Positions 25,391 through 61,413 of a DNA stretch of 64,000 nt are shown here, piece after piece; the stretch's first letter is position 1; every line of letters begins with the position of its first letter. The position numbers and the translations under genes are program-made. Below the pieces are notes generated by a model. The model made no database searches. It was not told the origin of the DNA and worked only from the letters and a program-made list of their open reading frames with translations. Source of the DNA: Somniosus microcephalus (Eukaryota); contig CM126230.1 of NCBI GenBank assembly GCA_052327205.1, forward strand, positions 23,126,001-23,190,000, in the 5' to 3' direction.

Positions 25391-25803
25391 CTTAGAGGAG
25401 AGGAGACGATCTACAGTTGAATTGCTGTAGAGAGCTTTCATCTTAAAATTGAAATGATCCCCGTTCCACAGCAGTGTGAAGTGAGGTTACCCTTCATTCA
25501 CCATTATGTATAATTTTGAATAATTAAAATTCTATAATGACTTCCCTGCGTAGATTATATGAGTTTGAGTCGAGCACATCAACTGCTCAGCACTCAAGTC
25601 AATTCAAGATATATTCTGGTCCCTTTAGTCAAAGGAGTTGTACCCTTTCAAAGTGAACACGGAGTGTTATCTTTCACCCTGTTTGCAGGCAATCATCAAC
25701 AAAATCAATAGCAAAATACTGCGGATGCTGGAAATCCGAAATAACAACAGAAAACGCTGGAAATGCTCAGCAGGCCAGGCAACATCTGTGGAGAGAGAAA
25801 TAG

Positions 25804-25839
25804 AGTCAACGTTTCAGGTCGAAACCCTTCGTCAGAACT
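25804..25839 (-). ncRNA. Minimal hammerhead ribozyme motif (left arm)
   Basis: agtt-CTGACGA-agggt-ttcg-acct-GAAA-cg-T-T-gact on the minus strand. Confidence 0.7.
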
Positions 25840-26306
25840 GAGAAAAGAAAGGCAGGAAATGAAACAGATTAAAAGGCAGTTTGGGGGTTGGGAAATGGGG
25901 GAAGGGATGAAAGAAGAGACATTAAGAGATATTCAAGGGGGGACGAGATGGTAATAGGACAGGTAAAGAAACAGACAATGGCTCTAGATGAAGTGTGAAA
26001 TGCGCTGGCAGAGTGAGAGACAGCTGCCATGTGGGAGAGAGAAAAAAAAGGAAATGGCATATTTTTTATCCACACCTTTGGTTTGTGCCTTTTCCTTTTT
26101 TTTTCTCTCTCCCACATGGCAGCTGTCGCTCACTCTGCCAGCGCATTTCACACTTCATCTAGAGCCATTGTCTGTTTCTTTACCTGTCCTATTACCATCT
26201 CGTCCCCCCTTGAATATCTCTTAATGTCTCTTCTTTCATCCCTTCCCCCATTTCCCAGCCCCCAAACTGCCTTTTAATCTGTTTCATTTCCTGCCTTTTT
26301 TTTCTC

Positions 26307-26342
26307 GGTTCTGAAGAAGGGTTTCGACCTGAAACATCGACT
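26307..26342 (+). ncRNA. Minimal hammerhead ribozyme motif (right arm)
   Basis: ggtt-CTGAAGA-agggt-ttcg-acct-GAAA-ca-T-C-gact; stem III palindrome mutated from ACGT to ACAT. Confidence 0.6.
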
Positions 26343-26583
26343 CTGTTTCTCTCTCCACGGATATTGCCTGGCCTGCTGAGTTTTTCCAGCGTTTTCTGTT
26401 GTTATATCAACAAAATCAATATGTCAGTGTTTTTATATAGTTTATACAAAGGGCCTGCAGAGACATTAGCAAAGTGAATGGGCTTTCTCTGTGTATGACC
26501 AAGTCAAGCATTTCCATTGGGATGGTTATCGTTCCATAATCTAGTTCTACAACTGCTTACCGTGCTGAAACAATTAGGCATCT

Positions 26584-35348: not shown

Positions 35349-36065
35349 TATTAGGAACTGGACTAAGAAGGTTCCAACTCATTTCACACATCCAGAGCAG
35401 AAAACACGGCCATCCCTTACAGACAACAATCTGAGGAGACTTTCGTTCCATCAATCTGGGCTGGTTTCTTTAAGTGGTGAAACATGCAGTTCTGGAGTCT
35501 ATAAGGAAGCAGTAAGGATGCATTTACACTACAATTGTAGTGTTGGTATGAGGCAACATCTTTCCCCATCCAAGCACCAATGTTAACTTTGGTGCATTCA
35601 TGCACCCTAAGTCTCTAGCTGCTCCCCAGCCAGTTCTGCTCATACACCAGCTCGCCGTGCAATGAAGTGACCTCTGAATATTGATTTTGATAATTCTAAT
35701 TCTTTTTCATATCTACTGAATGAAATCCTTTTGATTCGGATAATTCTGCCTGGCAGGGAATTTGCAGTTTAATCCAAAAAATCACAGTGCAAACGGACCT
35801 ATAACTGAAGCCGGCATAGAGGCCGTGGTGACCATGGATGATGGGATGGCCGTGTTTTCTGTTCTGGATGCGGAATTACTAATCTCAATTGTGTCATTGT
35901 GGGGAATCGCTGAACAGAAATCAGAGGATGTTAGCCTGTGGGGAGAAAACAGCAGAGCGCGATTCACACAATGTGATGCTCGCGTAGCTCCCAGTGTCGT
36001 CGTCACACGGTCCAGTGTTAGTCTCTTCCAATTCAAGTGTTGACCCTCATATGGCTCATCGCACT

Positions 36066-39000
36066 GTTCCCAGTGTCAGTGTCACATGGTTCCCAGTGTT
36101 AGTGTCACACGGTTTCCAGTGTCGGTGTCACACGGTTCCCAGTGTTAATGTCACACGGTTCCCAGTGTGGGTGTCACACGGTTCCCAGTGTTAGTGTCAT
36201 ACGGTTTCCAGTGTCGGTGTCACACGGTTTCATGTGTCACTGTCACACGGTTCCCAGTGTCGGTGTCACACAGTACCCGGTGTTAGTGTCACACCGTTCC
36301 CAGTGTCACTGTCACATGGTCCCCAGTGTGGGTGTCACACGGTTCCCAGTGTCGGTGTCACATGGTTCCCAGTGTCGGTGTCAAAAAGTTCCCAGTGTTA
36401 GTGTCACACGGTTCCCAGTGTGGGTGTCACACAGCTCCCAGTGTTAGTGTCACACGGTTCCCAGTGTCGGTGTCACATGGTTCCCAGTGTCGGTGTCACA
36501 TGGTTCCCAGTGTCGGTGTCACATGGTTCCCAGTGTTAGTGTCACACGGTTCCCAGTGTCGGTGTCACATGGTTCCCAGTGTTAGTGTCACACGGTTCCC
36601 AGTGTCGGTGTCACACGGTTCCCAGTGTCAGTGTCACACGGTTCCCAGTGTGGGTGTCACACAGCTCCCAGTGTTAGTGTCACACGGTTCCCAGTGTCGG
36701 TGTCACATGGTTCCCAGTGTTAGTGTCACATGGTTCCCAGTGTCGGTGTCACACGGTTCCCAGTGTCGGTGTCACATGGTTCCCAGTGTTAGTGTCACAT
36801 GGTTCCCAGTGTCACTGTCACACGGTTTCCAGTGTCACTGTCACACGGTTCCCAGTGTCGGTGTCACACGCTTCCCAGTGTTGGTGTCACACGGTTCCCA
36901 GTGTTAGTGTCACACGGTTCCCAGTGTTAGTGTCACACGGTTCCCAGTGTTAGTGTCACACGGTTCCCAGTGTCAGTGTCACACGGTTTCCAGTGTCACT
37001 GTCACACGGTTCCCAGTGTCAGTGTCACACGGTTCCCAGTGTTAGTGTCACATGGTTCCCAGTGTCGGTGTCACATGGTTCCCAGTGTTAGTGTCACACG
37101 GTTCCCAATGTTAGTGTCACACGGTTCCCAGTGTGGGTGTCACACGGTTCCCAGTGTTAGTGTCACACGGTTCCCAGTGTCGGTGTCACACGGTTCCCAG
37201 TGTTAGTGTCACACGGTTCCCAGTGTCGGTGTCACACGGTTCCCAATGTTAGTGTCACACGGTTCCCAGTGTGGGTGTCACACGGTTCCCAGTGTTAGTG
37301 TCACACGGTTCCCAGTGTGGGTGTCACATGGTTCCCAGTGTCGGTGTCACATGGTTCCCAGTGTCGGTGTCACACAGTTCCCAGTGTCACTGTCACACTG
37401 TTCCCAGTGTCGGTGTCACACGGTTCCCAGTGTGGGTGTCACACGGTTCCCAGTGTCGGTGTCACACAGTTCCCAGTGTCACTGTCACACTGTTCCCAGT
37501 GTCAGTGTCACACAGTTCCCAGTGTGGGTGTCACACGGTTCCCAGTGTTAGTGTCACACAGATCCCAGTGTTAGTGTCACACGGTTCCCAGTGTCGGTGT
37601 CACATGGTTCCCAGTGTCGGTGTCACACAGTTCCCAGTGTCACTGTCACACTGTTCCCAGTGTCGGTGTCACACGGTTCCCAGTGTTAGTGTCACACGGT
37701 TCCCAGTGTCGGTGTCACACGGTTCCCAGTGTGGGTGTCACATGGTTCCCAGTGTTAGTGTCACACGGTTCCCAGTGTCGGTGTCACACGGTTCCCAGTG
37801 TCGGTGTCACACGGTTCCCAGTGTCAGTGTCACACGGTTCCCAGTGTCGGTGTCACACGGTTCCCAGTGTGGGTGTCACACGGTTCCCAGTGTTAGTGTC
37901 ACACGGTTCCCAGTGTCGGTGTCACACGGATCCCAGTGTTAGTGTCACACGGTTTCCAGTGTCGGTGTCACACGGTTCCTAGTGTGGGTGTCACACGGTT
38001 CCCAGTGTTAGTGTCACACGGTTCCCAGTGTCGGTGTCACACGGATCCCAGTGTTAGTGTTACACGGTTCCCAGTGTTAGTGTCACACAGTTTCCAGTGT
38101 CACTGTCACATGGTTTCCAGTGTCGGTGTCACACGGTTCCCAGTGTGGGTGTCACACGGTTCCCAGTGTTAGTGTCACACGGTTCCCAGTGTCGGTGTCA
38201 CACGGATCCCAGTGTTAGTGTCACACGGTTTCCAGTGTCGGTGTCACACGGTTCCTAGTGTGGGTGTCACACGGTTCCCAGTGTTAGTGTCACACGGTTC
38301 CCAGTGTCGGTGTCACACGGATCCCAGTGTTAGTGTTACACGGTTCCCAGTGTTAGTGTCACACAGTTTCCAGTGTCACTGTCACATGGTTTCCAGTGTC
38401 ACTGTCACACTGTTCCCAGTGTCGGTGTCACACGGTTCCCAGTGTTAGTGTCACACGGTTCCCACTGTCGGCATCACATGGTTTCCAGTGTTAGTGTCAC
38501 ACGGTTCCCAGTGTTAGTGTCACACAGTTTCCAGTGTCACTGTCACACGGTTTCCAGTGTCACTGTCACACGGTTCCCAGTGTCGGTGTCACACGGTTCC
38601 CAGTGTTAGTGTCACACGGTTTCCAGTGTCGGTGTCACACGGTTCCCAGTGTTAGTGTCACACGGTTCCCAGTGTGGGTGTCACACGGTTCCCAATGTTA
38701 GTGTCACATGGTTCCCAGTGTCACTGTCACACCGTTCCCAGTGTCGGTGTCACATGGTTCCCAGTGTTAGTGTCACACGGTTCCCTGTGTCGGTGTCACA
38801 CGGTTCCCAGTGTTACTATCACATGGTCCCCAGTGTGGGTGTCACACGGTTCCCAGTGTTAGTGTCACACGGTTCCCAGTGTCGGTGTCACACGGTTCCC
38901 AGTGTTAGTGTCACACGGTTCCCAGTGTTAGTGTCACACTGTTCCCAGTGTCGGTGTCACACGGTTTCCAGTGTCGGTGTCACACGGTTCCCAGTGTGGG

Positions 39001-40478
39001 TGTCACACGGTTCCCAGTGTCGGTGTCACACGGATCCCAGTGTTAGTGGCACACAGTTCCCAGTGTCGGTGTCACACGGATCCCAGTGTTAGTGGCACAC
39101 AGTTCCCAGTGTCGGTGTCACACGGTTCCCAGTGTCAGTGTCACACGGTTCCCAGTGTCACTGTCACACTGTTCCCAGTGGCAGTGTCACACAGATCCCA
39201 GTGTTAGTGGCACACAGTTCCCAGTGTCGGTGTCACACGGTTCCCAGTGTCAGTGTCACACGGTTCCCAGTGTCACTGTCACACTGTTCCCAGTGTCGGT
39301 GTCACACGGTTCCCAGTCTTACTGTCACACGGTTCCCAGTGTGGGTGTCACACGGTTCCCAGTGTTAGTGTCACACGGTTCCCAGTGTCGGTGTCACACG
39401 GTTCCCAGTGTTAGTGTCACGCGGTTCCCAGTGTGGGTGTCACATGGTTCCCAGTGTTAGTGTCACACGGTTTCCAGTGTCGGTGTCACACGGTTCCCAG
39501 TGTCGCTGTCACACGGTTCCCAGTGTTAGTGCCACACGGTTCGCAGTGTTAGTGTCACACGGTTCCCAGTGTCGGTGTCACACGGTTCCCAGTGTTACTC
39601 TCACACAGTTCCCAGTGTTAGTGTCACATGGTTCCCAGTGTCGGGTCACACGGTTCCCAGTGTCGGTGTCACACGGTTCCCAGTGTCGGTGTCACGCGGT
39701 TCCCAGTGTCACTTTTACACGGTTCCCAGTGTTAGTGTCACACAGTTCCCAGTGTGGGTGTCACATGGTTCACAGTGTTAGTGTCACACGGTTTCCAGTG
39801 TCGGTGTCACACTGTTCCCAGTGTCGCTGTCACACGGTTCCCAGTGTCGCTGTCACACGGTTCCCAGTGTCGGTGTCACATGGTTCCCAGTGTTAGTGCC
39901 ACACGGTTCCCAGTGTTAGTGTCACATGGTTCCCAGTGTTAGTGCCACACGGTTCCCAGTGTTAGTGTCACACGGTTCCCAGTTTCGGTGTCACATGGTT
40001 CCCAGTGTTACTGTCACACAGTTCCCAGTGTTAGTGTCACACGGTTTCCAGTGTCACTGTCACACTGTTCCCAGTGTCGGTGTCACACGGTTCCCAGTGT
40101 TAGTGTCACATGGTTCCCAGTGTTAGTGTCACACGGTTCCCAGTGTCGGTGTCGCACGGTTCCCAGTGTGGGTGTCACACGGTTCCCAGTGTCACTGTCA
40201 CACGGTTCCCAGTGTTAGTGTCACACGGTTTCCAGTGTGGGTGTCACACGGTTCCCAGTGTTAGTGTCACATGGTTTCCAGTGTGGGTGTCACACGGTTC
40301 CCAGTGTCGGTGTCGCACGGTTCCCAGTGTGGGTGTCACACGGTTCCCAGTGTCACTGTCACATGGTTCCCAGTGTCAGTGTCACATGGTTCCCAGTGTC
40401 AGTGTCACATGGTTTCCAGTGTGGGTGTCACACGGTTCCCAGTGTGGGTGTCACACGGTTCCCAGTGTTAGTGTCACA
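36066..40478. repeat. 23-bp minisatellite, about 190 units (CCCAGTGT[TA/CG/GG]GTGTCACACGGTT)
   Basis: Continuous array read directly; degenerate units begin at ~35989. Confidence 0.98.
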
Positions 40479-40899
40479 GATAGTTTTACACTGGGAAACC
40501 AAGTCGGAGGAAGGGATTAAATTTACCTTTTAAATGAATATCAAACTATGGTAGCCCTGCATTTGATACCACGTAATATTAAACACCAGACATTATGGAA
40601 TGTAATTTTGAAACATTATTTTATTTACCTCAGCTTTTAAATGAAAGGGGATGATATATATTACAGCAAAACACTATTCTTACAAACTGCAATACTGTTT
40701 AGGGTGCCGGACACGCTGTGATCACGCAGCTGAATCACCGCTGTGTGCACAGGTGTGATTGAGTGAGATGGATGCCATTGTAACGTGGATGGAATAAACA
40801 TGGGGTTACTGCAGTGAGTCCATGTTGCAAAGAAGCAAATACAGTTCACTTTTTCTTTGCATGACCTCTACAGGACACCCGGGAGTGGGGAGTTATAGT

Positions 40900-44224: not shown

Positions 44225-44292
44225 AGAAAAAAAAGTCTTACATTTATATAGCGCCTTTCACGGCCTCAGGATGTCCTAAAGCGCTTTACAGC
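44225..44292 (-). mobile_element. DeuSINE tail; remainder at 55825-56200
   Basis: ...AAAGCGCTTTACAGC | LTR element | ACAGCCAATGAAGTAC... reconstitutes the SINE. Confidence 0.9.
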
Positions 44293-44621
44293 TGTCATAA
44301 ATCTCATCATCGAGAAACTACCTATGAAATAACACTGGACGGCCAGCTGGTGGCACCATCCAAGGACTATAAATACTTGGGCGTTGGCCCCAGCTTTCCA
44401 GGGGCATTTTGTAAGACAAGGAACTAGTGAAGTACAACTAGACCTCCATGTTCTGAAACAAGTTGATTAAAGCCTTGCTTTATACTCAAACCAAGTGTGT
44501 AGTGAGTTTTATTACGTCAATTTAATCAACTTGATATTGACTCCACGCTTTGGGTGATTTCGGGAATAGCCAGCTACGACTCGAACCGTAGAAGGGAACT
44601 CAGACAAGTAATCAATCCATC

Positions 44622-46778
44622 ATGGAGAAACTACTCAGCCCCGCCCGTCTTGACCTGGACCCGAATTCACTTACAGCTGCTAAGGTATGGAAACACTGGT
44701 ATCATACTTTTAGCAACTTCCTCAGGGTGTGTGGTGAAAATGTTCCTGATAAATTAGAAATACTTGCTAATTACGTATCCCCTCATGTGTTTGATTATAT
44801 CGAAGACTGTGTAGACTATGACGCCGCTATCCAAATACTACAGCAGCTATATGTCAAGTCTCCAAATGAACATTTTTCTCGGCATCTACTGGCCACAACT
44901 CGACAACAACCCGGGGAATCACTTGACGAATTCCTTCAGAAACTTTGCAGGCTCAGCAAGGATTGTAATCTTAAAGCTGTTACAGCTGAGCAGTACCAGG
45001 AGGAGTTAATTTGTGATTCCTTTATTAATGGGATTGCGTCTCTCTTCATGCATCAGCGTCTGTTGGAGAATAAAACCCTCAAGTTACAGGCTGCCTATGA
45101 CCAGGCATGTTCTCTGGACTTAGCAAAGAGGAATGCAGACACCTATCTTTTACCACGTGCACGGGCTGCTGCTATCTCTTTTAGTGACTCTTTCAATAGG
45201 CCTCGGGCGGAAGCCCTCATGGATGACGACTCCAACCCGGCTGATGACAACCCTACCCTAGAAACCTACACTGATGACGACCCCGCCCTAGCGGCATCTT
45301 GGCAATCTGGAAGGAAGTGTTTCTTCTGTGGAGGAGCGTTCCATTATAGGAAATTATGTCCTGCTCGTAACACGACCTGCAATCATTGCAGCAAGAAAGG
45401 TCACTTTTCTAAGGTATGCCAGTCAAGAGCCGCTGTTAGTAAGAAAGGCCACTTTTCTAAGGTATACCGGCCGGGAGCTCCTGTTAGTTTTGCAGCTATT
45501 ATCTATAAAACTGCTCCTCCCCCAAGAGCCACTACTAAGGTTACAGCTGCAATTTATAAAACTGCTCCTCCCCCAAGAACCACTACTAAGGTTACAGCTG
45601 TCAAGGGTAAAACTGCCCCTCCTCCCATCACAGCTGTTTTTCCCCAAAGCTTGTCCCATGCAGCCATGAAGGTTTCGATAAATGGACACATTTTGAGTGC
45701 ACTAATCGACTCATGCAGCTCTGACAGCTTCATTAGTGAGCGGGCTGTCAGTAAGTTAAAACTGCGTATTTACCCCTCGGACAGGGAAATTGCAATGGCT
45801 CTGACGACACTGACCACCAATTCTTCCGGCTTTTGTCTTGTCAACCTTATTCTCAATGGCCGCACTTATTTCTCCACCCGGCTCGGGGTGCTCAAGAACC
45901 TATGCAGTGATGTGCTCCTGGGACAGGATTTCCAGAAACAACACAAAAGACTCACTTTCGAGTTTGGAGGGTCAAAGCCGGAGCTTACTATTTCCAAAGT
46001 ACCGTTTTGTGCGCTTTCGGCGGCTTCGCTCGATGAGCCCTCCTTGTTTGCCAATCTTTCCCCCCAATGTAAGCCCATAGTCACTAAATCACGACGTTTC
46101 AGCCGAGATGATCGAGCCTTTATCGAGGCAGAAATCTCTCGCCTTCTAGCTGACGGTATCATTGAGCCATGTTCATCTCCCTGGCGGGCTCAAGTCGTCA
46201 TTGTTAAAAATCCTCTGAAGCAACACAAGAAATGTCTTTGCATCGATTACTCGCAAACTATTAACCAGTATACTGACCTGGATGCCTACCCACTACCACG
46301 CATCGATGACATGGTCAATAACCTTGCCAACTACAAGGTATTTTCAACTTTTGATTTAAAGAGCGCATATCATCAAGTACCGTTAAAGGACTCTGACAAA
46401 AAGTACACGGCCTTTGAGGCCAATGGTCGGCTTTACCAGTTTTGTCGCCTTCCATTTGGGGTCACCAATGGGGTGGCCATCTTTCAATGGGCAATGGAAA
46501 GCCTAGTCAAACAGGAGAACTTAACGGACACTTTTCCATATCTAGATAATATCACCATTGCTGGTCATAACCAGAAGGAGCATGATGCCAATCTCCAGAA
46601 ATTTTTTGACGTTCTCCATCGTCGCAACTTAACCTTAAATGAGTCCAAATCTGTGAAATCAGTACCATCAGTCAACATCCTTGGCTACTGGGTGGGCAAC
46701 GGTGTCATCAAACTGGATCCGGAGCGACTTCGTCCGCTTCAGGAGCTCCCTCCCCCTACGAATCTCGGCTCTCTTCGT
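44622..46778 (+). CDS. Element A gag-protease-RT, interrupted at 46778
   Basis: CCHC knuckles CFFCGGAFHYRKLC / CNHCSKKGHFSKVC, protease LIDSCS, RT SSPW..IDY..DAYPLP..DLKSAYHQ..LPFGV..YLDN; joins in frame across the insert (NLGSLR|RALGMFAYY). Confidence 0.92.
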
Positions 46779-47262
46779 TGTATTGATTTCTTTGTGGGTA
46801 CAATGATGAGACATTTGTACAAGAGAATGACTTTTAATCTAAGGTATATTCAACTCAAAGTTAACAGTATTTACAGGACACACCATGCTGTGATGCATCT
46901 AAAGTGAAACTAAAATCTCTCAGCCTGCTTGTCTGGTCACATGACCTCTGCTGGTCAGGCACAAGCAATCAATACCTGCAATCATGCTATTAAGGCATCA
47001 TAATCGAACAGGCAAATAACATCACTATTTGCTGATATCATTACATCTCCCTTTCTTAAAACAAAAGTATTTTACTTTTAACTAACAACATGTTTTCTTT
47101 GTATTAATCTGCATTTTAACTGTAACACTTAATGAACTTACATTATCATTATCATGATCAAGGTTTTTTAACCTTGCTTTGTGTGTTCACATGAAATATG
47201 TCAATACACTAGAACTTGAAGAAAGAATAAGATAACATTACTTCCTTCTATAACAATAGTCC

Positions 47263-47840
47263 TTAAATTTGCTCAATGAGTCTCTCAGGAGGCTTCACGT
47301 GTCTTGAGGATTTTCTGATTGATTGTCCTTGAATCTGAGTTGTTGCCTCAGATGATGTGTTCTCAGCTGTGTGACCAGGTTGTTCAACAGTATCAGTCTC
47401 TTCACCTGCTGTGGCTGGTCCCATGAGAAGATCTCGACGATTTCTTCTCAGAACAGTACCCTCATCTGTCTGAATGGTGTATGATCTTGGTTGAACTTCA
47501 CTCAGGACAGTTCCCTTCTGAGTCCATGTGTTTGTTTTGTCTTTCAACCTTACTTGGTCACCAGTGTGGAGTTCAGGTAGGTTTTGTGTTCCTCTGTCAT
47601 AGTAATACTTTTGCTTTGCTTTCTGTTGTTCTTTGAACTTCCTCACTTTCTCCCCCTCTTTTGTTTTCAGGAGGTTCTCCGGGATGGGTAGGTTTGACCT
47701 TAGCCGACGTCCCATCAGGAGTTGGGCTGGTGACTTACCACACTCGAACGGCGTTGTGCGGTATACAAGCATGCTTTGGTAGAAGTCAGTTCCACTGTCT
47801 TTTGTCTTGTACATCAGTCTTTTCACTGTCTGGACCGATT
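47263..47840 (-). pseudogene. Element B integrase C-terminal remnant
   Basis: KSVQTVKRL...YRTTP...SPAQLLMGRRLRSNLP...PRSYTIQT...RRNRRDL. Confidence 0.85.
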
Positions 47841-48694
47841 TTTTTTTTTTTTTCAGACACAACATCTACATTGAATTCCTCTATCTCGCTTTCATCTACT
47901 GTATGGACCTTGCTTTGTTGCGCTTGGTTCTTACAGCAACGGGCATAATGGTTGTTTTTGTTGCATCTATTGCATGTTTTACCATATGCTGGACACTTTC
48001 TTGGTGGATGCTGTGTACCGCATTGACTACATGACTTCCGATTGTCCCTTTCATTTTCATTTGCTGGCCACGTCTCTTTTTTCACATTGGCGCTCTCTTT
48101 GTTAAACGGTTTGTATCCGTTCTTTCTCACTGCATCCACGTTGCAGCTACTGTCACTGAACAGCTCCTTTGCCTGCAACTTCACAGTCTCTGTAGCCCTA
48201 CACAGTGCTATGGCTTTTCCCAGGTCTAGATCTTGCTCTCGTAGCAGTCTTTCCCTTAGACCATTATCTGGAATACCACACACCAGTCTGTCTTTTATCA
48301 GCGAGCCTGTGAGTCCCCCAAATTCACACGATTTGCTTCGGTTTCTCAGTTCAGTCACATACTGATCAATAGTCTCCCCGATTTTCTGTACACATGTGAA
48401 AAATTTGTGCCTCTCAAAGGTCACGTTGCGTTTAGGTATGCAGTAGGCCTCAAACTGTTCCATTATTTTATCTAGCTTCATTTTGTCTCCATCAACGGCA
48501 AATATGAAATTATTATACACCTCCAGCGCTGCATCACCCACTACATGTAAGAACACGGACGATTGCTGTTTATCACTTTTCTCGTCAGCTCCGATTGCCG
48601 CTAAATACAACCCCAAACGCTGTTTGAACCTTCTCCAATTTTCAGCCACATTACCTGTCAAATGAAGCGTCGCTGGTGGGAGTAGACCTTCCAT
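47786..48694 (-). CDS. Element B Gag (302 aa, open)
   Basis: GNVAENWRRFKQ...FERHKFFTCVQ..ETIDQYVTELR...IKDRLVCGI; CCHC knuckles. Confidence 0.9.
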   Translation of the reverse strand: MEGLLPPATLHLTGNVAENWRRFKQRLGLYLAAIGADEKSDKQQSSVFLHVVGDAALEVYNNFIFAVDGDKMKLDKIMEQFEAYCIPKRNVTFERHKFFTCVQKIGETIDQYVTELRNRSKSCEFGGLTGSLIKDRLVCGIPDNGLRERLLREQDLDLGKAIALCRATETVKLQAKELFSDSSCNVDAVRKNGYKPFNKESANVKKETWPANENERDNRKSCSQCGTQHPPRKCPAYGKTCNRCNKNNHYARCCKNQAQQSKVHTVDESEIEEFNVDVVSEKKKKIGPDSEKTDVQDKRQWN

Positions 48695-49104
48695 TTTTCA
48701 CTTCGTTAGCTATTCTCTAATGGTAAGCAACGATTTTCTCTTTTGGCTTGCTAGTATGTGGAGAGCTGTTTTAACTTCAAACTTTTTTCTTCATCTCTTT
48801 CAGTCACTCTCTTTCAGCCACTTCTGACACCATGTATTGATTTCTTTGTGGGTACAATGATGAGACATTTGTACAAGAGAATGACTTTTAATCTAAGGTA
48901 TATTCAACTCAAAGTTAACAGCATTTACAGGACACACCATGCTGTGATGCATCTAAAGTGAAACTAAAAACTCTCAGCCTGCTTGTCTGGTCACATGACC
49001 TCTGCTGGTCAAGCACAAGCAATCAATACCTGCAATCATGCTATTAAGGCATCATAATCGAACAGGCAAATAACATCACTATTTGCTGATATCATTACAT
49101 TCGT

Positions 49105-49955
49105 CGGGCACTCGGCATGTTCGCCTATTATGTGAAATGGATACCCTACTTCTCCGACAAGATCCAGCCCCTGCTTCACGCAAAGTCATTTCCATTGGAG
49201 GCAACGGCTATTTCAGCTTTCAACCTCCTCAAGCAACAACTGGAAAAAGCCACGCCTCGTTCCATTGATGAAAATCTTCCTTTCGTGGTCGAGTGCGATG
49301 CATCGGATGTGGCGATCTCGGCTACCTTGAATCAAGGTGGTCGACCTGTTGCATTTCTGTCCAGAACTTTGCAGGGTAGCGAGCTCCATTATCCTCCTTT
49401 CGAGAAGGAGGCTACGGCCATCATCGAAGCGGTACGTAAATGGAGTCATTTTCTCGCTCGTCACCATTTCACACTTATAACCGATCAGCGCTCTGTGGCC
49501 TTTATGCTGGATAACTGGAAACGCACTAAGATCAAGAATAACAAAATACAGCTCTGGAGGATGGAATTGGCTGCCTTTGGATACACCATACATTATTGAC
49601 CCGGGAAAGAGAATGTGGCCCCGGATACCCTACGCGGGCATTCTGCTCTTCTATGTCAACTTCGACTCTGGTGAATCTTCATACTGACTTATGCCATCCT
49701 GGCGTTATCCGTATGTTGCACTTTGTGCGATCTAAAAATCTCCCATTTTCTACGGAAGATGTTAAAAGAACGTGCTCCTCCTGTAAAATTTGTGTGGAGT
49801 TAAAACCGCAATTCTTCCGTCCATCGGATGACTCACTCCTACGCGCTATGCAGCCTATGCAGCGACTCAGCATTGACTTTAAAGGGCCATTGCCTTCCTC
49901 ACCGCGGAACACCTGCTTATTGACGATGGTGGACGAATATTCACCCTTTCCCTTT
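49105..49955 (+). pseudogene. Element A RNase H and integrase N-terminus
   Basis: ECDASDVAI..EKEATAII..TDQRS; HHCC (H..LCHPG..CSSCKIC), IDFKGP; TGA stop and frameshift near 49597-49632. Confidence 0.9.
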
Positions 49956-52900
49956 TGTTGTGTCGGTACCTTTCTACCTAGACACAATTTAGGACTCAGA
50001 ACTCAGAGATTCAAACATAAAGTGCTTTATTGGAAGGAAAGGAAGTTCTGGCAAGTTCCAAACAAAGAGAGCTAAACTTAACAGAGAACACCCAACCATT
50101 TATCTCCTGTGACAGCGCCACCACAGGTGGGAGGAGAACACACAATAGAACACACAATACATAACATTTCCTCCCCTCTTAAATGGAAGGTCCACATTAT
50201 TCCTCAACAGGTAAGTTACTTTCAATGCACTCAACGAACCTAGGGTAGAGGTAGACTGCCTCAAACCCTGACTTTACCCTGGGGTTTATTCTGCCCCAGT
50301 CTTGTGGGTAAGTCACTAAGCCTACAGATCCAAGCGTCTTGGAGGCCGCCGCTCTCTGACAGGATACCGACGGTCATCGCTGGCTTCCACAGCAGTAGGC
50401 ATTGACACAGGCCTGGATGGAGAAGGTGCCTGTGTCAGTTGAAAGTCAGGAGTTTGCACAGGTGGAACAGTCTCTTTGACTTCCTGTGTTGGAGAAGAGC
50501 ACTGTGGCAAAGGATGCTGGTTTGTGGTATCATCCGGAAACAGTTCAGGCCAACCAGCCGTTGGAGCCTCTGTGGCTGTCTCTGCTCCTAGCAACAGTTG
50601 ATCTGTGTGTCTTCTCCAGACGACGTCCTCAGCAGTCTCAACCGTGTAAGACACAGGGCCCGTCTGCGCGATCACCGTAGCAGGAACCCATTTCGGTCCT
50701 GTGTAGTAGTTTCGAGCTAGGACGTGCTCTCCAGGGTGAAACCGTCTCTCCTTGGCTCTTTTCTCTCTCTTTTCAACTTGAGCTTGTTGTTGACAATGGA
50801 CAACCTGTTCTGCCCTTGGAGGTTTGAGTAAGTCAAAACTTGTCCGCAACTGCCTCTTCATCATGAGCGAAGCGGGGGAAGTTTTGGTTGTGGCATGCGG
50901 CTTGTTCTTGTAGGACAACAGGAAGCTGTTCAGACGTTGCTGGATTGAGCCCTGACCTTGCGATGCCTTCAAGGCGCGCTTCAAAGTTTGCACAAACCTT
51001 TCTGCCTGGCCGTTAGTAGAGGGATGATAGGGCGCAGGCCTGATGTGTTGGACACCATTCACATGCAGGAAGGTTGCAAACTCCTGTGATACAAATTGTG
51101 GACTGTTGTCACTTACGAGTTGTTCCGGTGAGCCATAACGGCTGAACATCTCACCAAGTTTCTCAATTGTTTTCTCTGCCGTGGTAGACCTCATCACAGC
51201 GACCTCCGGCCACTTGCTACGAGCGTCCACAACCACCATAAACATCTTCTCTTCGAAAGGACCAGCGAAGTCCACATGTACTCGCTGCCACACTTCTGCA
51301 GGCCAATCCCAGGGGTGTAGGGTTGCCAGCTGTGACATGGGGAACATGTTTTGGCTTTCTCCTCAATATTTCCATCGAGACCTGGCCACCAGAAGTAGCT
51401 TCTTGCCATTTCCTTCATCCGAACCATCCCACTGTGGCCTGTATGAAGTTGTTGCAGTATAGGTTCCCTCAGAGGTGGCGGAATGATGACACGGCGTCCC
51501 CAAAGAAGACAACCTGCCTGGACGGAGAGCTCATTTCTTTTTGAAACGTAAGGTTTCAAACTAGGAGAATCTCCTATAGCTCTCCCTCGAATGACATCGT
51601 CCATTACCTCAGACAGGACTGGATCGTTGCGGGTGTACATTCGCACCTGAACTGCAGTGACAGGTGCTCCCGCCACTTGTCTAAAGTAGAAGATGTCTAT
51701 CTGACGAGGCTCTGGGGGAGTAACAGGCAAGGGTAGCCTCGAGAGACCGTCTGCGTTGCCGTGCAAGTCTGATTTGCGATATTTGATGTCGTATGTGTGT
51801 CCTGACAACAGTAAAGCCCACCTTTGCATCCTGCTTGCAGCGAGAGACGGAATTCCGGTGTGGGGCCCGAAGATTGAAGTCAATGGACGGTGGTCCATCA
51901 GGAGTGTGAACCTTCTCCCAAACAGGTACTGATGAAATTTTCGAATTCCAAAAACGATTCCCAAGGCCTCGCGCTCGATCTGCGCATAGTTACTCTCGGC
52001 CTTGTTCAAGGTGCGTGATGCGAAGGCGATAGGTTTCTCTTCACCCGAAGGCATGATGTGGCATATGACTGCTCCCACACCATATGGTGATGCATCACAT
52101 GCTAGCTGCACAGGTAGCTTTGGGTCGAAGTGTGTCAGGACCTCTGATTTCAGCAATGCTTTCTTTGCTTGGGCGAAAGCTTCGTTGCACAGTTCAGTCC
52201 ATTTCCATATTTTGCCTTGACATAGCAACTGATGTAATGGCTTCAGCAATGTTGCTAAGTCTGGAATAAACTTCCCATAGTAGTTAAGTAGCCCCAGAAA
52301 TGAACGTAACTGGCTCACATTCTGGGGTGCTGGGGCTTCCACGATCGCCTTGACCTTTGACGGCGCCTTATGCAGGCCAGTAGCGTCAATCACATGCCCC
52401 AGGTACTCAACTGAAGACTGAAAGAATTCACATTTGTCTTTACGAACTCTGAGTCCGTACTCTTTCAGTCGTTGTAGTGTCGCATCCAAGTTCAGAAGAT
52501 GATCCTCCTCATTTGTCCCAGTGACAAGGATGTCATCCAGGTAGCACTGGACTCCTGGCAGTCCACTCAAAATCTGATCCATTGCCCTTTGGAATAGAGC
52601 AGGGGCCGACGTAATTCCAAACGGAAGGCGGCATTACCTGTATAGCCCCTTGTGTGTCACAATTGTCAGCAGCTCCTTTGATTTGTCATCGACATGCATT
52701 TGTAGATAAGCCTGGCATCAGTCTATTTTGCTGAGCTTTTGCCCTCCGGCCAGGCCCGTAAAAAGATCATCAATGAGGGGAAGAGGGTACTGTTCCGCAG
52801 ACAGCACCGGGTTAATAGTCACTTTAAAATCCCCGCAGATTCGAACAGATCCATCCTTTTTCAGGACAGGAACAATGGGTGTGGCCCATTTGCTCACGCT

Positions 52901-54566
52901 CACAGGCTCCAGGACTCCATTCTCGACTAAGGCCTCCAAGTTAGCCTCAACTTTTGGCCTAATTGCATAGGGTACAGATCGGGCTTTGTGAAACTTCGGC
53001 TTGCTGTCAGGTTTAATGTCCAGTCTCACGCTGATCTTTTTCATGCTCCCAAGTTCCCCATTGAAGAGTTCTGCATGTTTGTTTAACACTGCAGTCAGAC
53101 CTGACTCCCCTTTTGACATCATGCGGACTGCAGGCCAGTCCAGCGTGATTTTCTCTAGCCACGCACGTCCCAGTAGCGATGGGTAATTTCCCTTTACCAC
53201 ATATAGTGGCAGTTTTGCAGTCTGTCCATTCAATTTAACTGTCACCTCAATGACGCCTCTCATGGCCACAGGTTCACCGGTATACGTCTTTAGCACAATG
53301 TTTGTTGGCTGAAGGGTAAGATGCTTTAGCATTTTGTTGTAGACAGTGTCTGAAACAAGGGACACAGCTGCACCTGTGTCCACCTCCATCCGCACTGATT
53401 GTCCCTCCACCAGTGGTGACACCCAGTAGCCATTTAAATCACCTGCAACCGTCAGTATGTGCACCTCTTCCTCCTCAGAGTTGTCGCTCCCCTCTGTTTT
53501 GCTTGTTCCATCATACTGCACTGAATGAACACTCTTTTTCCTCTCTTGTCCAAATACAGACATTTTGCTTCCATGCTTCCCAGCTCTGTCTGTTCTTTTT
53601 TTACCTCTACAGGCGCGTTCAATGTGACCCTTTTTGCCACAATTTCGGCATTCCAGCTCTGTACACCAGCAGTCATTAGCGTGATGGCCCGTTTTCCCAC
53701 AACGGTAACATGTGCCGTTCCGCGCACCTTTAGGCTCAGACGACACCTTGTGAACTCTCCCTGTTGAACTCAACTGGTGAGCCTCCTTTTCCGCCATCTC
53801 CATGGAGACACTAACTTCAATGGCCTTTTCAAGAGTAAGGTTGTCCTTAGTAAGAAGGCGCTTCTGTGTGGCTGCATTTTGCAGACCACACACAAGTCTG
53901 TCTCTAATGGTGTCATTCAGCACCTCCTTGAACTGGCAGTGTTCTGACAACCTTTTTAAAGCAGCAATAAACATCGTCACTGATTCCCCCTCCTCTTGAT
54001 TCCGTTTATGAAATCTAAATCTCTCAGCAATAACCAGAGGTTTTGGTGAAAAATGTGCTCCAAGAATTTCCACTAGTTGCTTATATGTTTTAGTTCCTGG
54101 CTTATCTGGTTGCACGAGGCTGCGAAGTAAATTGAATGTCTTCGGCCCGATTACACTCAAAAAGGTAGGCACGACCTTTTCATTTGCCAATACAAAATAG
54201 TCAAAACATTCTGTATAAGCGCTCCATTGCTCCACATTTTCATCAAAATCACCGATGTTTCCGAATATAGTAGCCATATCACGTTTCAAATTAAATTTTC
54301 TGTTTACTCACTGCACCCGTAACGTACGCAGATTCGTCCGCTCCTCATTGCCACTTGTTGTGTCGGTACCTTTCTACCTAGACACAATTTAGGACTCAGA
54401 ACTCAGAGATTCAAACATAAAGTGCTTTATTGGAAGGAAAGGAAGTTCTGGCAAGTTCCGAACAAAGAGAGCTAAACTTAACAGAGAACACCCAACCATT
54501 TATCTCCTGTGACAGCGCCACCACAGGTGGGAGGAGAACACACAATAGAACACACAATACATAACA
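49956..54566 (-). mobile_element. Gypsy (Mag-like) element C, full length
   Basis: 211-bp LTRs 49956-50166 and 54356-54566 (1 mismatch), TSD CCTTT, PBS-like TGGCAATGAGGA, PPT AAGAGGGGAGGAAA. Confidence 0.97.
50322..54289 (-). pseudogene. Element C gag-pol with one stop (52718) and one frameshift (~51340)
   Basis: Two CCHC knuckles, VDTGA protease, RT YLDD, RNase H CDASPYG/EREAL, integrase VHVDFAGP..SDN..NGQAERFV. Confidence 0.93.
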
Positions 54567-54571
54567 CCTTT

Positions 54572-55145
54572 GCTTTCCCCTGTCCCAATATGCTTACTTC
54601 CACAGTGATCAAATGCCTTGATCAAGTCTTTTCCCTTTGCGGTACGGCCAATTTCATCCACTCTGATCGGGGTCCCTCCTTCATGTCAAGCAAACTCAAA
54701 CGTTATCTCTCCCAACGGGGAATCACCACAAGTAAAACGACACCGTACCATCCCATCAGTAATGGACAGGTTGAGAGATACAACACTATCATTTGGAACG
54801 CTGTTCGTCTTGCGCTGAGGTCACGCAATCTACCAGGCCAGCAGTGGGAAACTATGCTCCCTGACGCGTTGCATTCCATCAGGTCTCTCCTTTCTACTTC
54901 TACCAATGTCACACCTCACGAGCGATTCTTCGGCTTCCAGCGTCGCTCCACCCATGGGACATCTCTACTGTCATGGTTGGCAGCTCCTGGCCCCGTGCTG
55001 CTCCGAAGATTCGTCTGATCGTCAAAAACCGATCCCCTAGTCGACGAGGTAGAACTTACAGACATCAACCCCACATACGCCCACGTACGGTACCCGGATG
55101 GCCGGGAGTCCACCGTCTCGCTCCGGGACATGGCTCCCTGTCCAG
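54572..55145 (+). pseudogene. Element A integrase core and C-terminus
   Basis: DEYSPFPF|AFPCP joins across insert C; HSDRG..YHPISNGQVERYN; in-frame TGA at 55016-55018. Confidence 0.9.
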
Positions 55146-55824
55146 CCGATTCCGCGGACCCGACTGATGGAGGGACCCGTGGGGATGAGGCCGACTCTCT
55201 GCGCTCCCCCGAGGATGATGCCCTACCTGGGACATCGAGGGATCTGCTGGCTGCCCCGCCGGATCCGCTCGGGGAGCCGAGCACCCCCCGTAGGATGGCC
55301 ACCCCGGGCCAGGACGCCGGTCAATCTCTGGCTAACCAACAGGACGAAGCCAGTTCTGCGCCTGTGGGGACCCGCACCCGGAGTCACGATCTCCCCAGCC
55401 TCCCTCGGGTTGATCAGAGCAACACGGGCCCTGTTGATGCACCGGCACAGATCAAGCGGCCCAGGGACCAAGACACGGTCCGGGGAGATGTGCCTTCTAG
55501 CCATAAACAAAAATCTAAAAGACTGCGGCTATTCATGGTCCGCCTGATCTGCTTAGAGGAAGTCGTCGGACTTCCAAATCTTTTAGGCAGGAAGAATGTC
55601 ATAAATCTCATCATCGAGAAACTACCTATGAAATAACACTGGACGACCAGCTGGTGGCACCGTCCAAGGAGTATAAATACTCGGGCGTTGGCCCCAGCTT
55701 GCCCTGGGACATTTTGTAAGACAAGGAACTAGTGAAGTACAACTAGACCTCCATGTTCTGAAACAAGTTGATTAAAGCCTTGCTTTATGCTCAAACCAAG
55801 TGTGTAGTGAGTTTCATTACGTCA

Positions 55825-56200
55825 ACAGCCAATGAAGTACTTTTTGAAGTGTAGTCACTGTTGTAACGTAGGAAACACGGCAGCCAATTTACGCACAGCA
55901 AGCTCCCACAAACAGCAATTTGATAATGAGCAGATAATCTGTTTTTTAGTGATGTTGGTTGAGGGAAAAATATTGGCCAGGACACCGGGGAGAACTCCCC
56001 TGCTCTTCTTCAAAATAGTGCCATAGGATCTTTCACATCCACCTGAGAGAGCAGACGGGGCCTTGGTTTAACGTCTCATCCGAAAGATGGCACCTCTGAC
56101 AGTGCAACACTCCCTCGGCACTGAACTGGAGTGTCAGCCTAGATATTGTGCTCAAGTCTCTAGAGCGGGACTTGAACCCACAACCTTCTGACTCAGAATG
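55825..56200 (-). mobile_element. DeuSINE body (5' part of the SINE split by element A)
   Basis: Deu domain and B box. Confidence 0.9.
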
Positions 56201-56544: not shown

Positions 56545-59495
56545 TCATGTCCAAATTCCTGCCCACTCCCCGTAACCCTTAATTCCCTTTACTTCTAGGA
56601 AACTGTCTATTTCTGTTTTAAATTTATGTAATGATGTAGCTTCTACAGTTTTTTGGGGCAGCATATTCCATGGACCTAGCACCCTCTGAGTGAAGTAGTT
56701 CCTCCTCATCTCAGTTTTGAAAGAGCAGCCCCTTATTCTAAGACTATGCCCCCTAGTTCTAGTTTCACCCATCATCGGGAACATCTTCCCTGCATCCACC
56801 CGATCCAACCCCTTCACAATCTTATATGTTTCAATAAGATCGCCTCTCATTCTTCTGAACTCCAATGAGTAGAGTCCCAATCTACTCAACCTCTCCTCAT
56901 ATGTCCGTCCCCTCATCCCCGGGACTAACCGAGTGAACCTTCTTTGTACTGACTCGAGAGCAAGTATGTCCTTCCTTAAGTATGGACACCAAAACTGTAC
57001 GCAGTATTCCAGGTGCGGTCTCACCAATACCTTGTACAACTGAAGCAATACCTCCCTATTTTTATATTCTATCCCCCTAGCAATGAAAGCCAACATTCCA
57101 TTGGCCTTCTTAATCACTTGCTGCACCTGCATACTAACCTTTTGAGTTTCATGCACCAGGACCCCCAGATCCCTTTGTACTTCAGTACTTTCCAGTTTCT
57201 TGCCATTAAGATAATAACTTGCTCTACGATTTTTCCTGCCAAAGTGCATAACCTCACACTTTCCAGTATTGTATTCCACCTGCCAAATCTCTGCCCACTT
57301 ACTTAGCCTGTCTATGTCCCCTTGAAGGTTTTTTATGTCCTCCTCACTCACTACTTTCCCCCCATCTTAGTATCATCGGCAAACTTTGATATGTTACACT
57401 CGGTCCCCTCCTCCAAATCATTAATATAGATTGTAAAGAGTTGGGGACCCAGCACTGACCCCTGCGGAACACCACTAGTTACTGATTGCCAGTCTGAGAA
57501 TGAACCATTTATCCCAACTCTCTGCCTTCTGTTAGATAGCCAATCCTCTATCCATGCCAGAATATTACCCCCAATCCCGTGATTTTTTATCTTAAGCAAT
57601 AATCTTTTGTGTGGCACCTTGTCAAATGCCTTTTGGAAGTCTAAATACACTACGTCCACTGGTTCCCCTTTATCCACCCTATATGTTACTTCCTCAAAGA
57701 ACTCCAGCAAATTTGTCAAACATGACTTCCCCTTCATAAAACCATGCTGACTTTGTCCTATTAAATTATGATTATCCAAATGTCCTGTTACTGTCTCCTT
57801 AATAATGGACTCCAAAATTTTACCTACCACAGATGTTAGGCTAACCGGTCTATAGTTTCCAGCCTTCTGTCTACTGCCCTTTTTAAATAAGGGTGTTACA
57901 TTAGCAGTTTTCCAGTCTGCCGGGACCATTGCCGAGTCCAGGGAGTTTTGGAAAATTATTACCAATGCATCCACAATCCCTACCGCCACTTCCCTCAAGA
58001 CCCTAGGATGTAAGCCATCAGGTCCAGGTGATTTATCCACCTTGAGTCCCATTATTTTACCGAGTACCACTTCCTTAGTGATTTTGATCGTGTTTAGCTC
58101 CTCCCCCCCTTTAGCCCCCTGTTTGTCCAGTGTTGGGATATTCTTAGTGTCTTCTACTGTAAAGACTGATGTAAAATATTCATTCAGTGTTTTTGCCATC
58201 TCCATATTTCCCACCATTAATTTCCCGGTCTCATCCTCTAAGGGACCAACATTTACTTTAGCCACCCTTTTTCTTTTTATGTAACTATAAAAAGTCTTAC
58301 TATCTGTTTTTATATTTTTTGCTAATTTACTTTCATAATCTATCTTCCCTTTCTTAATCAATCTTTTTGTTATTTTTTGCTGTCTTTTAAAGTTTTCCCA
58401 ATCCTCTATCCTCCCACTAGATTTGGCTACCTTATATGCCCTTGTTTTTAGTCGAATACTATCCTTAATTTCTTTACTTAGCCACGGATGGCTGTCTTTT
58501 CTTTTACACCCTTTTCTTCTCAGTGGAATATATATTTTTTGGAAGTTGTAAAATAACTCCTTAAATGTACACCACTGACCATGTATTGTCTTACCCTTTA
58601 ATCTATTTTCCCAATCCACTCTACTCAATTCCGCTCTCATACCTTCATAGTCTCCTTTATTCAAGCTTAGCACGCTTGTTTGAGATCCAACCTTCTCACC
58701 CTCTAATTGAATATGGAATTCAACCATGTTATGGTCACTCATTCCAAGGGGATCCTTTACTAGGACATTTTTAATTAATCCTGTCTCGTTACACAGGACC
58801 AGATCTAAGGTTGCCTGCCCCCTGGTCGGTTCAGTTACATACTGCTCAAGAAACCCATCCCTAATACACTCAATGAACTCATCCTCAAGGTAGCCCTGCC
58901 CAATTTGATTTGTCCAATTAATATGATAGTTAAAATCCCCCATAATTATAGATGTTCCCTTATTACAAGCCTCAACTATTTCCTGATTGATACTCCGTCC
59001 AACAGAGTTGCCACAGTTCGGAGGCCTATAGACTACGCCCACTAGTGTTTTTTTCCCCTTATTATTCCTTACCTCCACCCAAACTGTTTTATTGTCCTGA
59101 TCTTTTGACCCAATATCATTTCTCTGTATTACAGTGATTCCTTCCTTTATTAACATAGCCACCCCACCTCCCCTTCCTTCCTGCCTGTCCTTCCTGATCG
59201 TTAAATAACCTGGTATGTTTAATTCCCAGGCATTGCCACCCTGCAGCCATGTTTCTGTAATGGCCACAAGATCATACCCATGTGTAGTTATTTGTGCCAT
59301 TAACTCATCTATTTTGTTACGAATGCTACGTGCACTCAGATAGAGAACTTTCAAAGATGTTTTGTGACACTTAGTTCCTGCTTTTGCCCTTTTTATTACT
59401 TTCCCTTTTACTCCATACCTTCTGCCCCTTCCTGACATGCTCTGGCTTTTAATTTCCCCACTGCTACCTAAGTCTATGACCTTCCCTGTTGTCAT
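56545..59495 (-). CDS. CR1 ORF2 (APE endonuclease plus RT) with a single -1 frameshift at ~57360
   Basis: AITETWL, GVVYRPP, MGDFN, SDHN; [33 protein letters not shown]; C-terminal RGDLIE. Confidence 0.95.
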
Positions 59496-59533
59496 TTGTA
59501 TTATTTGCTCTCTAGGAACCTCCCCCCCACTAG

Positions 59534-60490
59534 TTAGTTTAAAGCCCTCTCTACAGCCCTAGTTATATGATCCGCCAGGACTCTAGTCCCAGCACTGGCC
59601 AAGTGAAGCCCGTCCCAACGGAACAGCTCCCTCCTGCCCCAGTACTGGTGCCAGTGTCCCAGGAAGTAAAACCCATTTCTCCCACACCAGTCTTTGAGCC
59701 ATGCATTTAACTCTGTAATTTTATTTGTCCTCGCCAAATTCGCTCGTGGCTCAGGTAATAATCCAGAGATTATTACCCTTGTGGTTCTGCTTTTTAATTT
59801 GGCCCCTAGCTGCTCAAACTCCCTCAGCAGAACCTCCTTCCTTGTCCTATCTATGTCGTTGGTACCAACATGGACCACGACAACTGGATCCTCCCCCTCC
59901 CACTCCAAGTTTCTCTCCAGTCCAGAGGAGATGTCCTTAACCCTGGCACCGGGCAGGCAACACAGCCTTCGGGACTCTCGCTCTCGGCTGCAGAGAACTC
60001 TATCTATCCCCCTAATGATACTATCCCCTACCACTACAACATTTCTTTTAACTCCCCCCACTTGAATGGCCCCCGGCTCCACGGTGCTGTGGCCAGGTTG
60101 CTCATCCTCCCCGCAGTTCCTGTTCCCATCCTCACAGGGAGTAAGAGCCTCGAACCTGTTGGACAAGTGCAGGGGCTGCGGCTCCTCCAACACTACCTCC
60201 TGGATCCCCGTACCTGCCTCACTTCTAGTCACACCATCCTGACCCTGGCCACGGACTACATCTGAATTAATTAATCTAATTGGTGTGACTACCTCCTGAT
60301 ACACAGAGTCCAGGTAACTCTCCCCCTCCCTGATGTGTCTCAGTGTTTGAAGCTCGGACTCCAGCTCTTCAACACGGAGCCGGAATTCCTCGAGCAGCCA
60401 ACACTTACTGCAAATGTGATCACCGTGAGCATCAATGGTGTCCACCAGCTCCCACATATTGCAGCAGCAACACATCGCCTGATCTCCCAT
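59534..60490 (-). CDS. CR1 ORF1 (zinc finger/coiled coil plus SGNH esterase), 318 aa
   Basis: CCCCNMW..CSKC, leucine-rich coil, GDSIIRG, HVGTND, DGLHL. Confidence 0.95.
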
Positions 60491-60701
60491 TCTATGTAAT
60501 TAATTAAATTTATTAATATTATTCTTGAATACCCTCTGCCTCGATTCTAGATGGTGAATATCACACCTTAGAAACTATAAACCAAGGAGATTTAAGCTTA
60601 AAAAGGGAGAAATACTTAGCAACCAATCACTTACCCGCTTTGTGGTGACGTCACACCTTGAATACTTTTTACCTCTCTCCTTCCCTGAGATTGGAAATTG
60701 G

Positions 60702-61182
60702 TGAGGCCTACCTGAGCCTCTGGGGCCTCTTGTAGTCGCTCTGCCGCTCAGCTCCACCTCCACCCGCTGCCGATGCCGCACTGGGGCCTACCTGAGCCTC
60801 TGGGGCCTCTTGTAGTCGCTCTGCCGCTCAGCTCCACCTCCACCCGCTGCCGATGCCGCACTGAGGCCTACCTGAGCCTCTGGGGCCTCTTGTAGTCGCT
60901 CTGCCGCTCAGCTCCACCTCCACCCGCTGCCGATGCCGCACTGAGGCCTACCTGAGCCTCTGGGGCCTCTTGTAGTCGCTCTGCCGCTCAGCTCCGCCTC
61001 CACCCGCTGCCGATGCCGCACTGAGGCCTACCTGAGCCTCTGGGGCCTCTTGTAGTCGCTCTGCCGCTCAGCTCCGCCTCCACCCGCTGCCGATGCCGCA
61101 CTGGGGCCTACCTGAGCCTCTGGGGCCTCTTGTAGTCGCTCTGCCGCTCAGCTCCGCCTCCACCCACTGCCGATGCCGCACT
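60702..61182. repeat. 80-bp tandem array x6 at the CR1 5' end
   Basis: Unit starts every 80 bp (60702, 60782 ... 61102); copies near identical. Confidence 0.95.
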
Positions 61183-61413
61183 TGGTTTGTACCAAGATTG
61201 TCTGCTAATTTCCGCACGGGCCTATTATGACTTTTAATGCCATGCACAAGCCAGGAATTGCTCCAAGTGTGAACCTTCGGAGGGGAGAGAGTGCGGGACA
61301 GTGGTGTGGTTACTGCAGGAACATTGGGGATGTTTCCAAATGGATCGGCAAAATGAGAGGCGCACCCTGACATTCCTACATCCACAACAGAGGAGCAGAC
61401 AAAGATGAGGCGG

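Follow-up and report, generated by a model that had tools for sequence, protein, structure and literature searches.

We identified in the window, the whole 64,000-nt stretch of DNA analyzed here, a Ty3/Gypsy LTR retrotransposon (44293-55824) that appears to prime reverse transcription with an internal piece of its own transcript, a reading to which we assign a probability of about 0.74; that it self-primes in some form is highly probable. Self-priming, one of the readings offered in the original prediction for this locus, is well supported because two short arms covary across and within families, keep a fixed 1-nt register to the LTR end and recur in rearranged genomic copies. The arms are TTTAATCAACTTG (44521-44533), one spacer A (44520) after the 5' LTR, and CAAGTTGATTAAA (44459-44471) inside the LTR, of which the former is the exact reverse complement. 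This 13-nt complementarity had been located correctly from the outset and none of 5000 dinucleotide shuffles of the LTR, with stems anchored 0-5 nt past the LTR end, reached 13 bp (best, at most 11 bp). Also borne out by the sequence were the ATTAAA inside the LTR arm and the absence of TGG after the 5' LTR end; the site starts with TTT, and those of two nested Gypsy elements, used as controls, start with TGG. The maximum stems in these two TGG-type controls were 5 and 6 bp. The LTR arm ends 48 nt before the 5' LTR end, and the TATA box, TATAAATA, begins at 44368, 91 nt 5' of the arm. Folding of 44450-44545 gave z = -2.79, and the longer segment 44398-44640, stem included, was unremarkable overall (z = -1.04). 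The features of the locus are listed below.

44288-44292, plus strand: left target-site duplication, ACAGC; the insertion lies within a host repeat
44293-44519, plus strand: 5' LTR, 227 nt, TG...CA; 95.6% against the 3' LTR
44368-44375, plus strand: TATA box, conserved both in the family and in its sister subfamily
44398-44406, plus strand: putative transcription start region (~44400), from the TATA box plus 30 nt and from antisense extensions that stop at 44398-44400
44459-44471, plus strand: 5' arm, predicted 3' end of the self-primer, with ATTAAA at 44466-44471
44471-44472, plus strand: predicted cleavage site AAA/GCC (cut between 44471 and 44472), from rearranged copies
44472-44519, plus strand: stretch between the 5' arm and the LTR end, from folding and rearranged copies
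44520, plus strand: single-nucleotide spacer next to the 5' LTR, an A in 153 of the 156 copies
44521-44533, plus strand: predicted primer-binding site, complement of 44459-44471, from pairing, copy variation and rearranged copies
44622-46778, plus strand: gag-protease-RT part, single gag-pol frame, interrupted by a nested insertion
46539-46550, plus strand: RT motif YLDN of the element, within the gag-protease-RT part
46779-49100, minus strand: nested Gypsy element, internally deleted, TGG-type primer site; internal control, ends approximate
49101-49947, plus strand: segment with RNase H and the integrase zinc finger, the reading frame interrupted by breaks
49948-54566, minus strand: second nested Gypsy element, TGG-type primer site; internal control, ends approximate
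54567-55584, plus strand: integrase core piece and 3' internal region
55585-55596, plus strand: polypurine tract adjoining the 3' LTR
55597-55824, plus strand: 3' LTR, 228 nt, with a second copy of the arm at 55764-55776
55825-55829, plus strand: right target-site duplication, ACAGC

The LTR end was placed at 44519 because ACAGC is duplicated on the two sides of the element. The domain order (protease-RT-RNase H-integrase) is preserved in a gag-pol frame split by the two minus-strand nested elements, and the closest solved structure to the RT is that of Ty3. Uninterrupted family copies in the 6.4-Gb host genome measure ~4.0-4.8 kb and most carry 5-bp duplications (39 copies with both LTRs). 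Past the zinc knuckles, the end of gag holds 48-nt and 51-nt tandem duplications (45390-45627). Elsewhere in the window are a long tandem array of 23-nt units, with 187 copies in register (~35967-40500), a 317-nt inverted repeat with arms 95% complementary and spaced 37 nt apart (25738-26408) and, on the minus strand, a LINE with endonuclease and RT domains (56545-60499), followed by an 80-nt tandem repeat (60622-61261).

In the mechanism that we propose, transcription would start near 44400, ~60 nt upstream of the LTR arm, and 44459-44471 is predicted to fold onto 44521-44533 in the transcript. The RNA would then be cut at AAA/GCC, between 44471 and 44472, perhaps by RNase H if the analogy with Tf1 holds; the Tf1 primer lies in R and the RT makes the cut, according to the passages covered of PMC5341516. 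The 5' piece (~72 nt, with the last 13 alone paired) would serve as the primer and be extended over the spacer, U5 and the remaining R to 44472, yielding a 49-nt strong-stop DNA for transfer to the 3' R. When the plus strand is made, the primer would be copied to form the primer site of the next generation and, with this copying repeated each cycle, the two arms would therefore stay matched.

Of 170 loci examined in the element's own genome, we set aside 8 without a usable 5' LTR match and 6 repeats; the other 156 copies comprise 130 from the element's own family and 26 from a sister subfamily (~78% identical). The stem is perfect in 104 of the own-family copies (13/13) and 17 of the sister copies. 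Across the first kilobase of the family, the two stem arms are the least variable part, with per-site variation of 0.0045 and 0.0064 vs 0.026-0.052 in the loop, leader, gag and U3, although the arm figures omit the terminal pair and 30 loci were chosen by a DNA similarity that included the stem. The original prediction had named covariation of the two 13-mers as a test, and matched changes were found both within and across families. One stem pair is C/G in 23 of 26 sister copies vs T/A in 126 of 130 own-family copies. For the terminal pair, exact genome-wide counts gave 1265 C/G, 40 T/A, 30 C/A and 24 T/G, that is, 54 mismatched or wobble copies, and the 40 T/A copies compare with 3.2 expected under independence (computed after dropping three reverse-strand double readings). 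Because the T/A copies fall within one sub-lineage, the change was probably a single event; the copy tree is star-like (2 of 153 branches starred). An initial excess of C/A over T/G (8 vs 1) was gone genome-wide (30 vs 24) and we thus claim no order of change. The stem is longer by a T in 6 of 130 own-family copies, and the same T is present in 23 of 26 sister copies; it may be ancestral and was left out of the argument. In a third, distant family of this genome, all 12 copies fetched carry a stem of 11-14 bp, with two matched variants. Three of the 39 copies with both LTRs (L141, L149 and L220) differ at a C/T arm site between their own two LTRs.

The stem extends well beyond this genome. Homologs 42-64% identical (120 listed) came from corals, crustaceans, a tunicate and a fluke, among others; no relatives were found among viral contigs. 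The gag start was present in 37 of 80 metagenome loci, which together with four own-genome sequences gave 41 sequences, grouped by similarity into 20 LTR families. A stem with at least 11 of 12 Watson-Crick pairs, a 3' arm 1 nt after CA and at most 1 of 40 shuffles performing equally was found in 25 of the 41 sequences and in 15 of the 20 families, with the LTR end confirmed by a second LTR for some sequences and taken from the CA for others. Of the five remaining families, two are represented by truncated contigs and three have 10 of 12 pairs. Among the 15 stem-bearing families the layout is constant but the letters differ, with at least two pair types at 10 of 12 stem positions in the family representatives. 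The arm ends in AAA in these representatives, once in AGA (with TCT as its partner), and RCCT directly follows it in 13 of 15. Even L069 and the near-identical L068, L074 and L076 differ on both arms. An inner hairpin of at least 4 pairs opens the loop in 13 of 15 representatives, a count made without a control and not used as evidence. Of the 120 listed homologs, 81 have YxDN at the RT active site and 29 have YxDD, the two forms being interspersed over the tree; YxDN is a natural change of the second aspartate within a spreading clade. We rejected a tie between YxDN and the priming mode, as the stem is shared by family L303, whose motif is YLDD. A literature search for 'YLDN' with 'retrotransposon' found no paper, and the five supplements searched of PMC6238403 had no YLDN; primer-site data were likewise absent from the passages covered of that source.

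A further line of evidence came from 69 loci of the same genome (L318-L386) in which the LTR end, the A and the primer site continue as antisense LTR. These loci were first seen as reverse-strand matches in the exact terminal-pair searches, and all 69 were retrieved. On the right side, 55 reach the LTR start (9 of these enter the polypurine tract) and 14 stop earlier; the left side is an LTR in 41 loci (3 of them carrying deletions), consists of antisense pieces of the element in 12 and is unclear in 1, and the other 15 loci begin in or just past the arm. We checked 20 LTR-type loci: a 5-bp target duplication (4 or 5 of 5 positions matching) flanks 17, none has an inverted flank and one proved to be the 3' terminus of a complete element. 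Most of the 20 share one U3 subtype, and among the rearranged copies are near-palindromic insertions that terminate in U3 at both ends and are flanked by 5-bp target duplications. From the short direct duplications we infer insertion by integrase, and we rejected a host-level fold-back as the origin of these copies, since their flanks are short direct rather than inverted duplications. The rearranged copies are thus best read as fossil products of reverse transcription. They resemble Tf1 cDNA in carrying a primer copy after the LTR end, a feature of about half of the Tf1 cDNA ends in the passages covered of PMC11042837.

If so, the rearranged copies offer a DNA-only route to mapping the cut and start sites. 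Nine loci run from U3-R to the AAA, continue with ~20 nt of antisense U5 and then resume at 44470-44472 to the LTR end; 8 are independent, with at least 4 junction types, and all have target duplications. Three other junction loci break elsewhere (44456, 44462 and a complex one). The simplest single-event reading of the nine is a strong-stop DNA with its end at 44472 that copied its own primer after folding back and was then transferred, although the junctions can also be drawn as a switch-and-return at the end of the 13-nt homology. The 14 independent truncated loci begin at 44472 (5, one of them within a base), inside the arm (8) or at 44475 (1), a pile-up at 44472 that is not significant for a null range of 44458-44475 (p = 0.07) and gives p = 2e-5 for a null over 110 nt. 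Of the 14 incomplete antisense extensions, three terminate at 44398-44400, which lies 30-32 nt past the TATA box (p ~0.04), although the counts for junctions, left ends and these stops are all small. Two loci (L332 and L338) run from 44398-44400 to 44471 and then antisense from 44520 to 44472, which is the predicted primer-plus-strong-stop molecule. The original prediction had required either a cleavage step or a later start site. The junctions and left ends at 44470-44472 make cleavage likely, whereas a later start is disfavored by a TATA box 91 nt upstream.

One counterpoint to an internal primer is that 55 of the 69 rearranged loci run to the LTR start and not to 44400, because such runs need a further strand transfer under internal priming and fit priming from the 3' end directly. 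The 13-mer copy in the 3' LTR, cut or trimmed after AAA, would in that case pair with the primer site. The rearranged copies that reach the LTR start, and the nine that enter the polypurine tract, look as if copied from 3' LTR RNA, and all 15 representatives have AAA or AGA at the end of the arm. Strong-stop DNA primed in this way would, however, end at the cap, which fails to account for the junctions and the left ends seen at 44470-44472. Nor did a search for retroposed poly(A) copies lend support: one pattern occurred at three places, A-runs near the arm sequence that are not copies of this LTR, and the other pattern at none. We therefore regard 3'-end priming as unlikely and continue to favor the internal primer.

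A shade less likely still is that the geometry is plainly that of Tf1, with the transcript starting at ~44459 and its first 13 nt as the primer. This layout matches that described in the passages covered of PMC4600332 and PMC10085805, several invertebrate families have no TATA box at a fixed distance and Tf2 is described as having alternative starts. Yet the sole TATA box of our element is conserved 91 nt upstream, and the three extensions noted above stop at 44398-44400. A chromodomain Gypsy family in the same genome (L291-L296) displays the classical Tf1/sushi-type arrangement: a 9-11 bp stem in 6 of 8 loci (those with an LTR pair), a loop of 150-155 nt where the stem is 11 bp, a loop-leader duplex and a partner 150-159 nt before the repeat end. 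Its TATA-like box lies 30 nt before the partner (2 of 2 checked), as our element's box does not, which argues against plain Tf1 geometry here.

The original prediction had also raised the possibility of a hairpin that masks the poly(A) signal of the 5' LTR only. That the stem does merely this, with another RNA as the primer, is very improbable. The arm contains AATAAA or ATTAAA in 9 of 15 families and the ATTAAA of our element is predicted to be paired at 0.94-0.99 in the 5' context. However, a canonical hexamer is missing from the arm in 6 of 15 stem-bearing families (in two families it lies in the loop), which argues that masking of the putative poly(A) site is not the core job of the stem. 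In the 3' LTR context, furthermore, most of the hexamer of our element is likewise predicted to be paired (0.61, 0.13, 0.86, 0.92, 0.94 and 0.96). Masking leaves unexplained the fixed 1-nt register and the primer-site copies at the ends of integrated cDNA, and a search for another primer site found none. Masking is thus weak as a general function, but it could be a side effect in families with the hexamer in the arm. The listed holders of the stretch included no RNA records; two raw RNA runs from a related species covered all 30 bins but were uninformative, showing no pile-up of starts or ends within the LTR and, among the rows listed, no loose ends with poly(A).

Least likely of all is priming by a tRNA fragment or another small host RNA with the LTR match as secondary, for although half-tRNA priming exists in some Copia lineages (passages covered of PMC6317226) and our tRNA test spanned 5 distinct sequences (the own-genome search gave a near-single array), the site lacks TGG, changes freely along with the LTR from one family or subfamily to the next within a single genome, and has a best match of 7 nt to these tRNAs and Rfam matches at E > 3 alone. 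A single tRNA cannot track primer-site changes across families. The array itself (C24:42.9-43.1 Mb) contains dozens of tRNA genes in tandem, ~1.6 kb apart and mostly Cys where seen.

Self-priming in the Tf1/sushi group involves a 5'-terminal primer, a cut by the RT, a three-duplex 'pretzel' and a chromodomain, as presented in the passages covered of PMC10085805, PMC4600332 and PMC5341516. As described for Tf1, Tf2, Tj1 and the Tf1/sushi group generally, the primer site of our element lies just past the 5' LTR and is complementary to its own putative R, with no tRNA. A cut is also required in Tf1, so the difference here would be the internal position of the primer: the Tf1/sushi primer is described as the first nucleotides of the mRNA, whereas here the partner lies 91 nt after the TATA box, and stem loops across families span 21-66 nt. 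The integrase of Tf1/sushi elements is described with a chromodomain, unlike that of this clade; none was found in P0035, P0043 or the precomputed domains of the 120 listed homologs, and one was present in the control L292. The 'pretzel' described for Tf1/sushi, assessed through the loop-leader duplex alone, is not conserved here: 15-297 of 300 shuffles beat the duplex in 17 of 17 clade sequences, as opposed to 2 of 300 in the chromovirus L292. In a quick RT tree of 47 rows, built without Tf1 or sushi sequences, the 20 rows of the clade group as a branch of their own (SH-aLRT 100), apart from the chromovirus core (99). Placement of the RT, a check named in the original prediction, thus gave a separate branch and left a sister relation to chromoviruses unrejected (AU p = 0.064; 32 rows, 15 long or redundant ones dropped). 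Because it has no chromodomain, a separate RT branch and no conserved 'pretzel', the clade is not a Tf1/sushi member; it likely works like Tf1 and may be sister to the chromoviruses.

The TGG that begins the primer site of tRNA-primed Gypsy elements (Mag, Saci2/lennie and CsRn1) is not found here, where the site begins with TTT. The K02A2.6-like proteins and the nested elements, which we take to belong to the Mag lineage, are similar in their two gag zinc knuckles, marine-animal range and 5-bp duplications, but the nested elements have TGG primer sites and the presumed Mag-like proteins form another RT branch. The flatworm elements Saci2 and lennie also resemble our element as small, single gag-pol invertebrate Gypsy elements with variable primer sites (passages covered of PMC12471100). 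A tRNA-Leu site 4 nt past the LTR and 4-bp duplications (as presented in parts of PMC4558846 and PMC12471100) set them apart from our 1-nt spacer and 5-bp duplications, a distinction drawn from descriptions rather than sequences. In plants, self-priming has been predicted from LTR-PBS complementarity for the Gypsy lineage Tcn1 and for TAR, a Copia group with Houba and Osr-1 (passages covered of PMC6317226); Tcn1 is, however, a chromovirus and TAR a Copia lineage, and their hosts and lineages differ from those of this clade. The fungal GalEa elements, with a Conserved Hairpin Site, and Skipper, with a polypyrimidine site, are likewise LTR elements without a tRNA primer site, but the passages covered report no LTR complementarity for them, whereas here the partner is inside the LTR. 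The comparison also drew on parts of PMC2864245, PMC5445492, PMC6934838 and PMC5006619.

Taken jointly, these observations suggest a fuller account that we advance only tentatively. A Gypsy clade of animals (corals, crustaceans, tunicates, a fluke and this vertebrate) would have evolved self-priming apart from Tf1, using an internal cut at A/RCCT and the capped 70-nt front piece as the primer, with the primer site rewritten from the LTR each cycle. In families with the hexamer in the arm, the stem would also silence the 5' poly(A) site. Rearranged copies would preserve the primer-strong-stop molecule and so map the cut and the start, and most members would carry a YxDN RT.

To our knowledge, bench tests of self-priming have been confined to fission-yeast elements. 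Our literature search, with Repbase Reports and GyDB outside its scope, found no account of priming in this Gypsy clade; Repbase reportedly carries notes on self-primed Gypsy families, and the clade may be noted in databases. What is new is likely the variant with an internal primer, the type of mechanism being already known from Tf1. In the parts of the literature covered, self-priming in Gypsy elements is tied to chromoviruses with a 5'-terminal primer. If true, our reading would bear on which came first, self-priming or tRNA priming, a question raised in the passages covered of PMC3601003. Annotation tools that require a tRNA site would miss such elements, and the clade would be expected to evade silencing by 3' tRNA fragments. 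Thus, a non-chromodomain clade of animal elements with an internal primer would, if confirmed, widen the known mechanism of self-priming.
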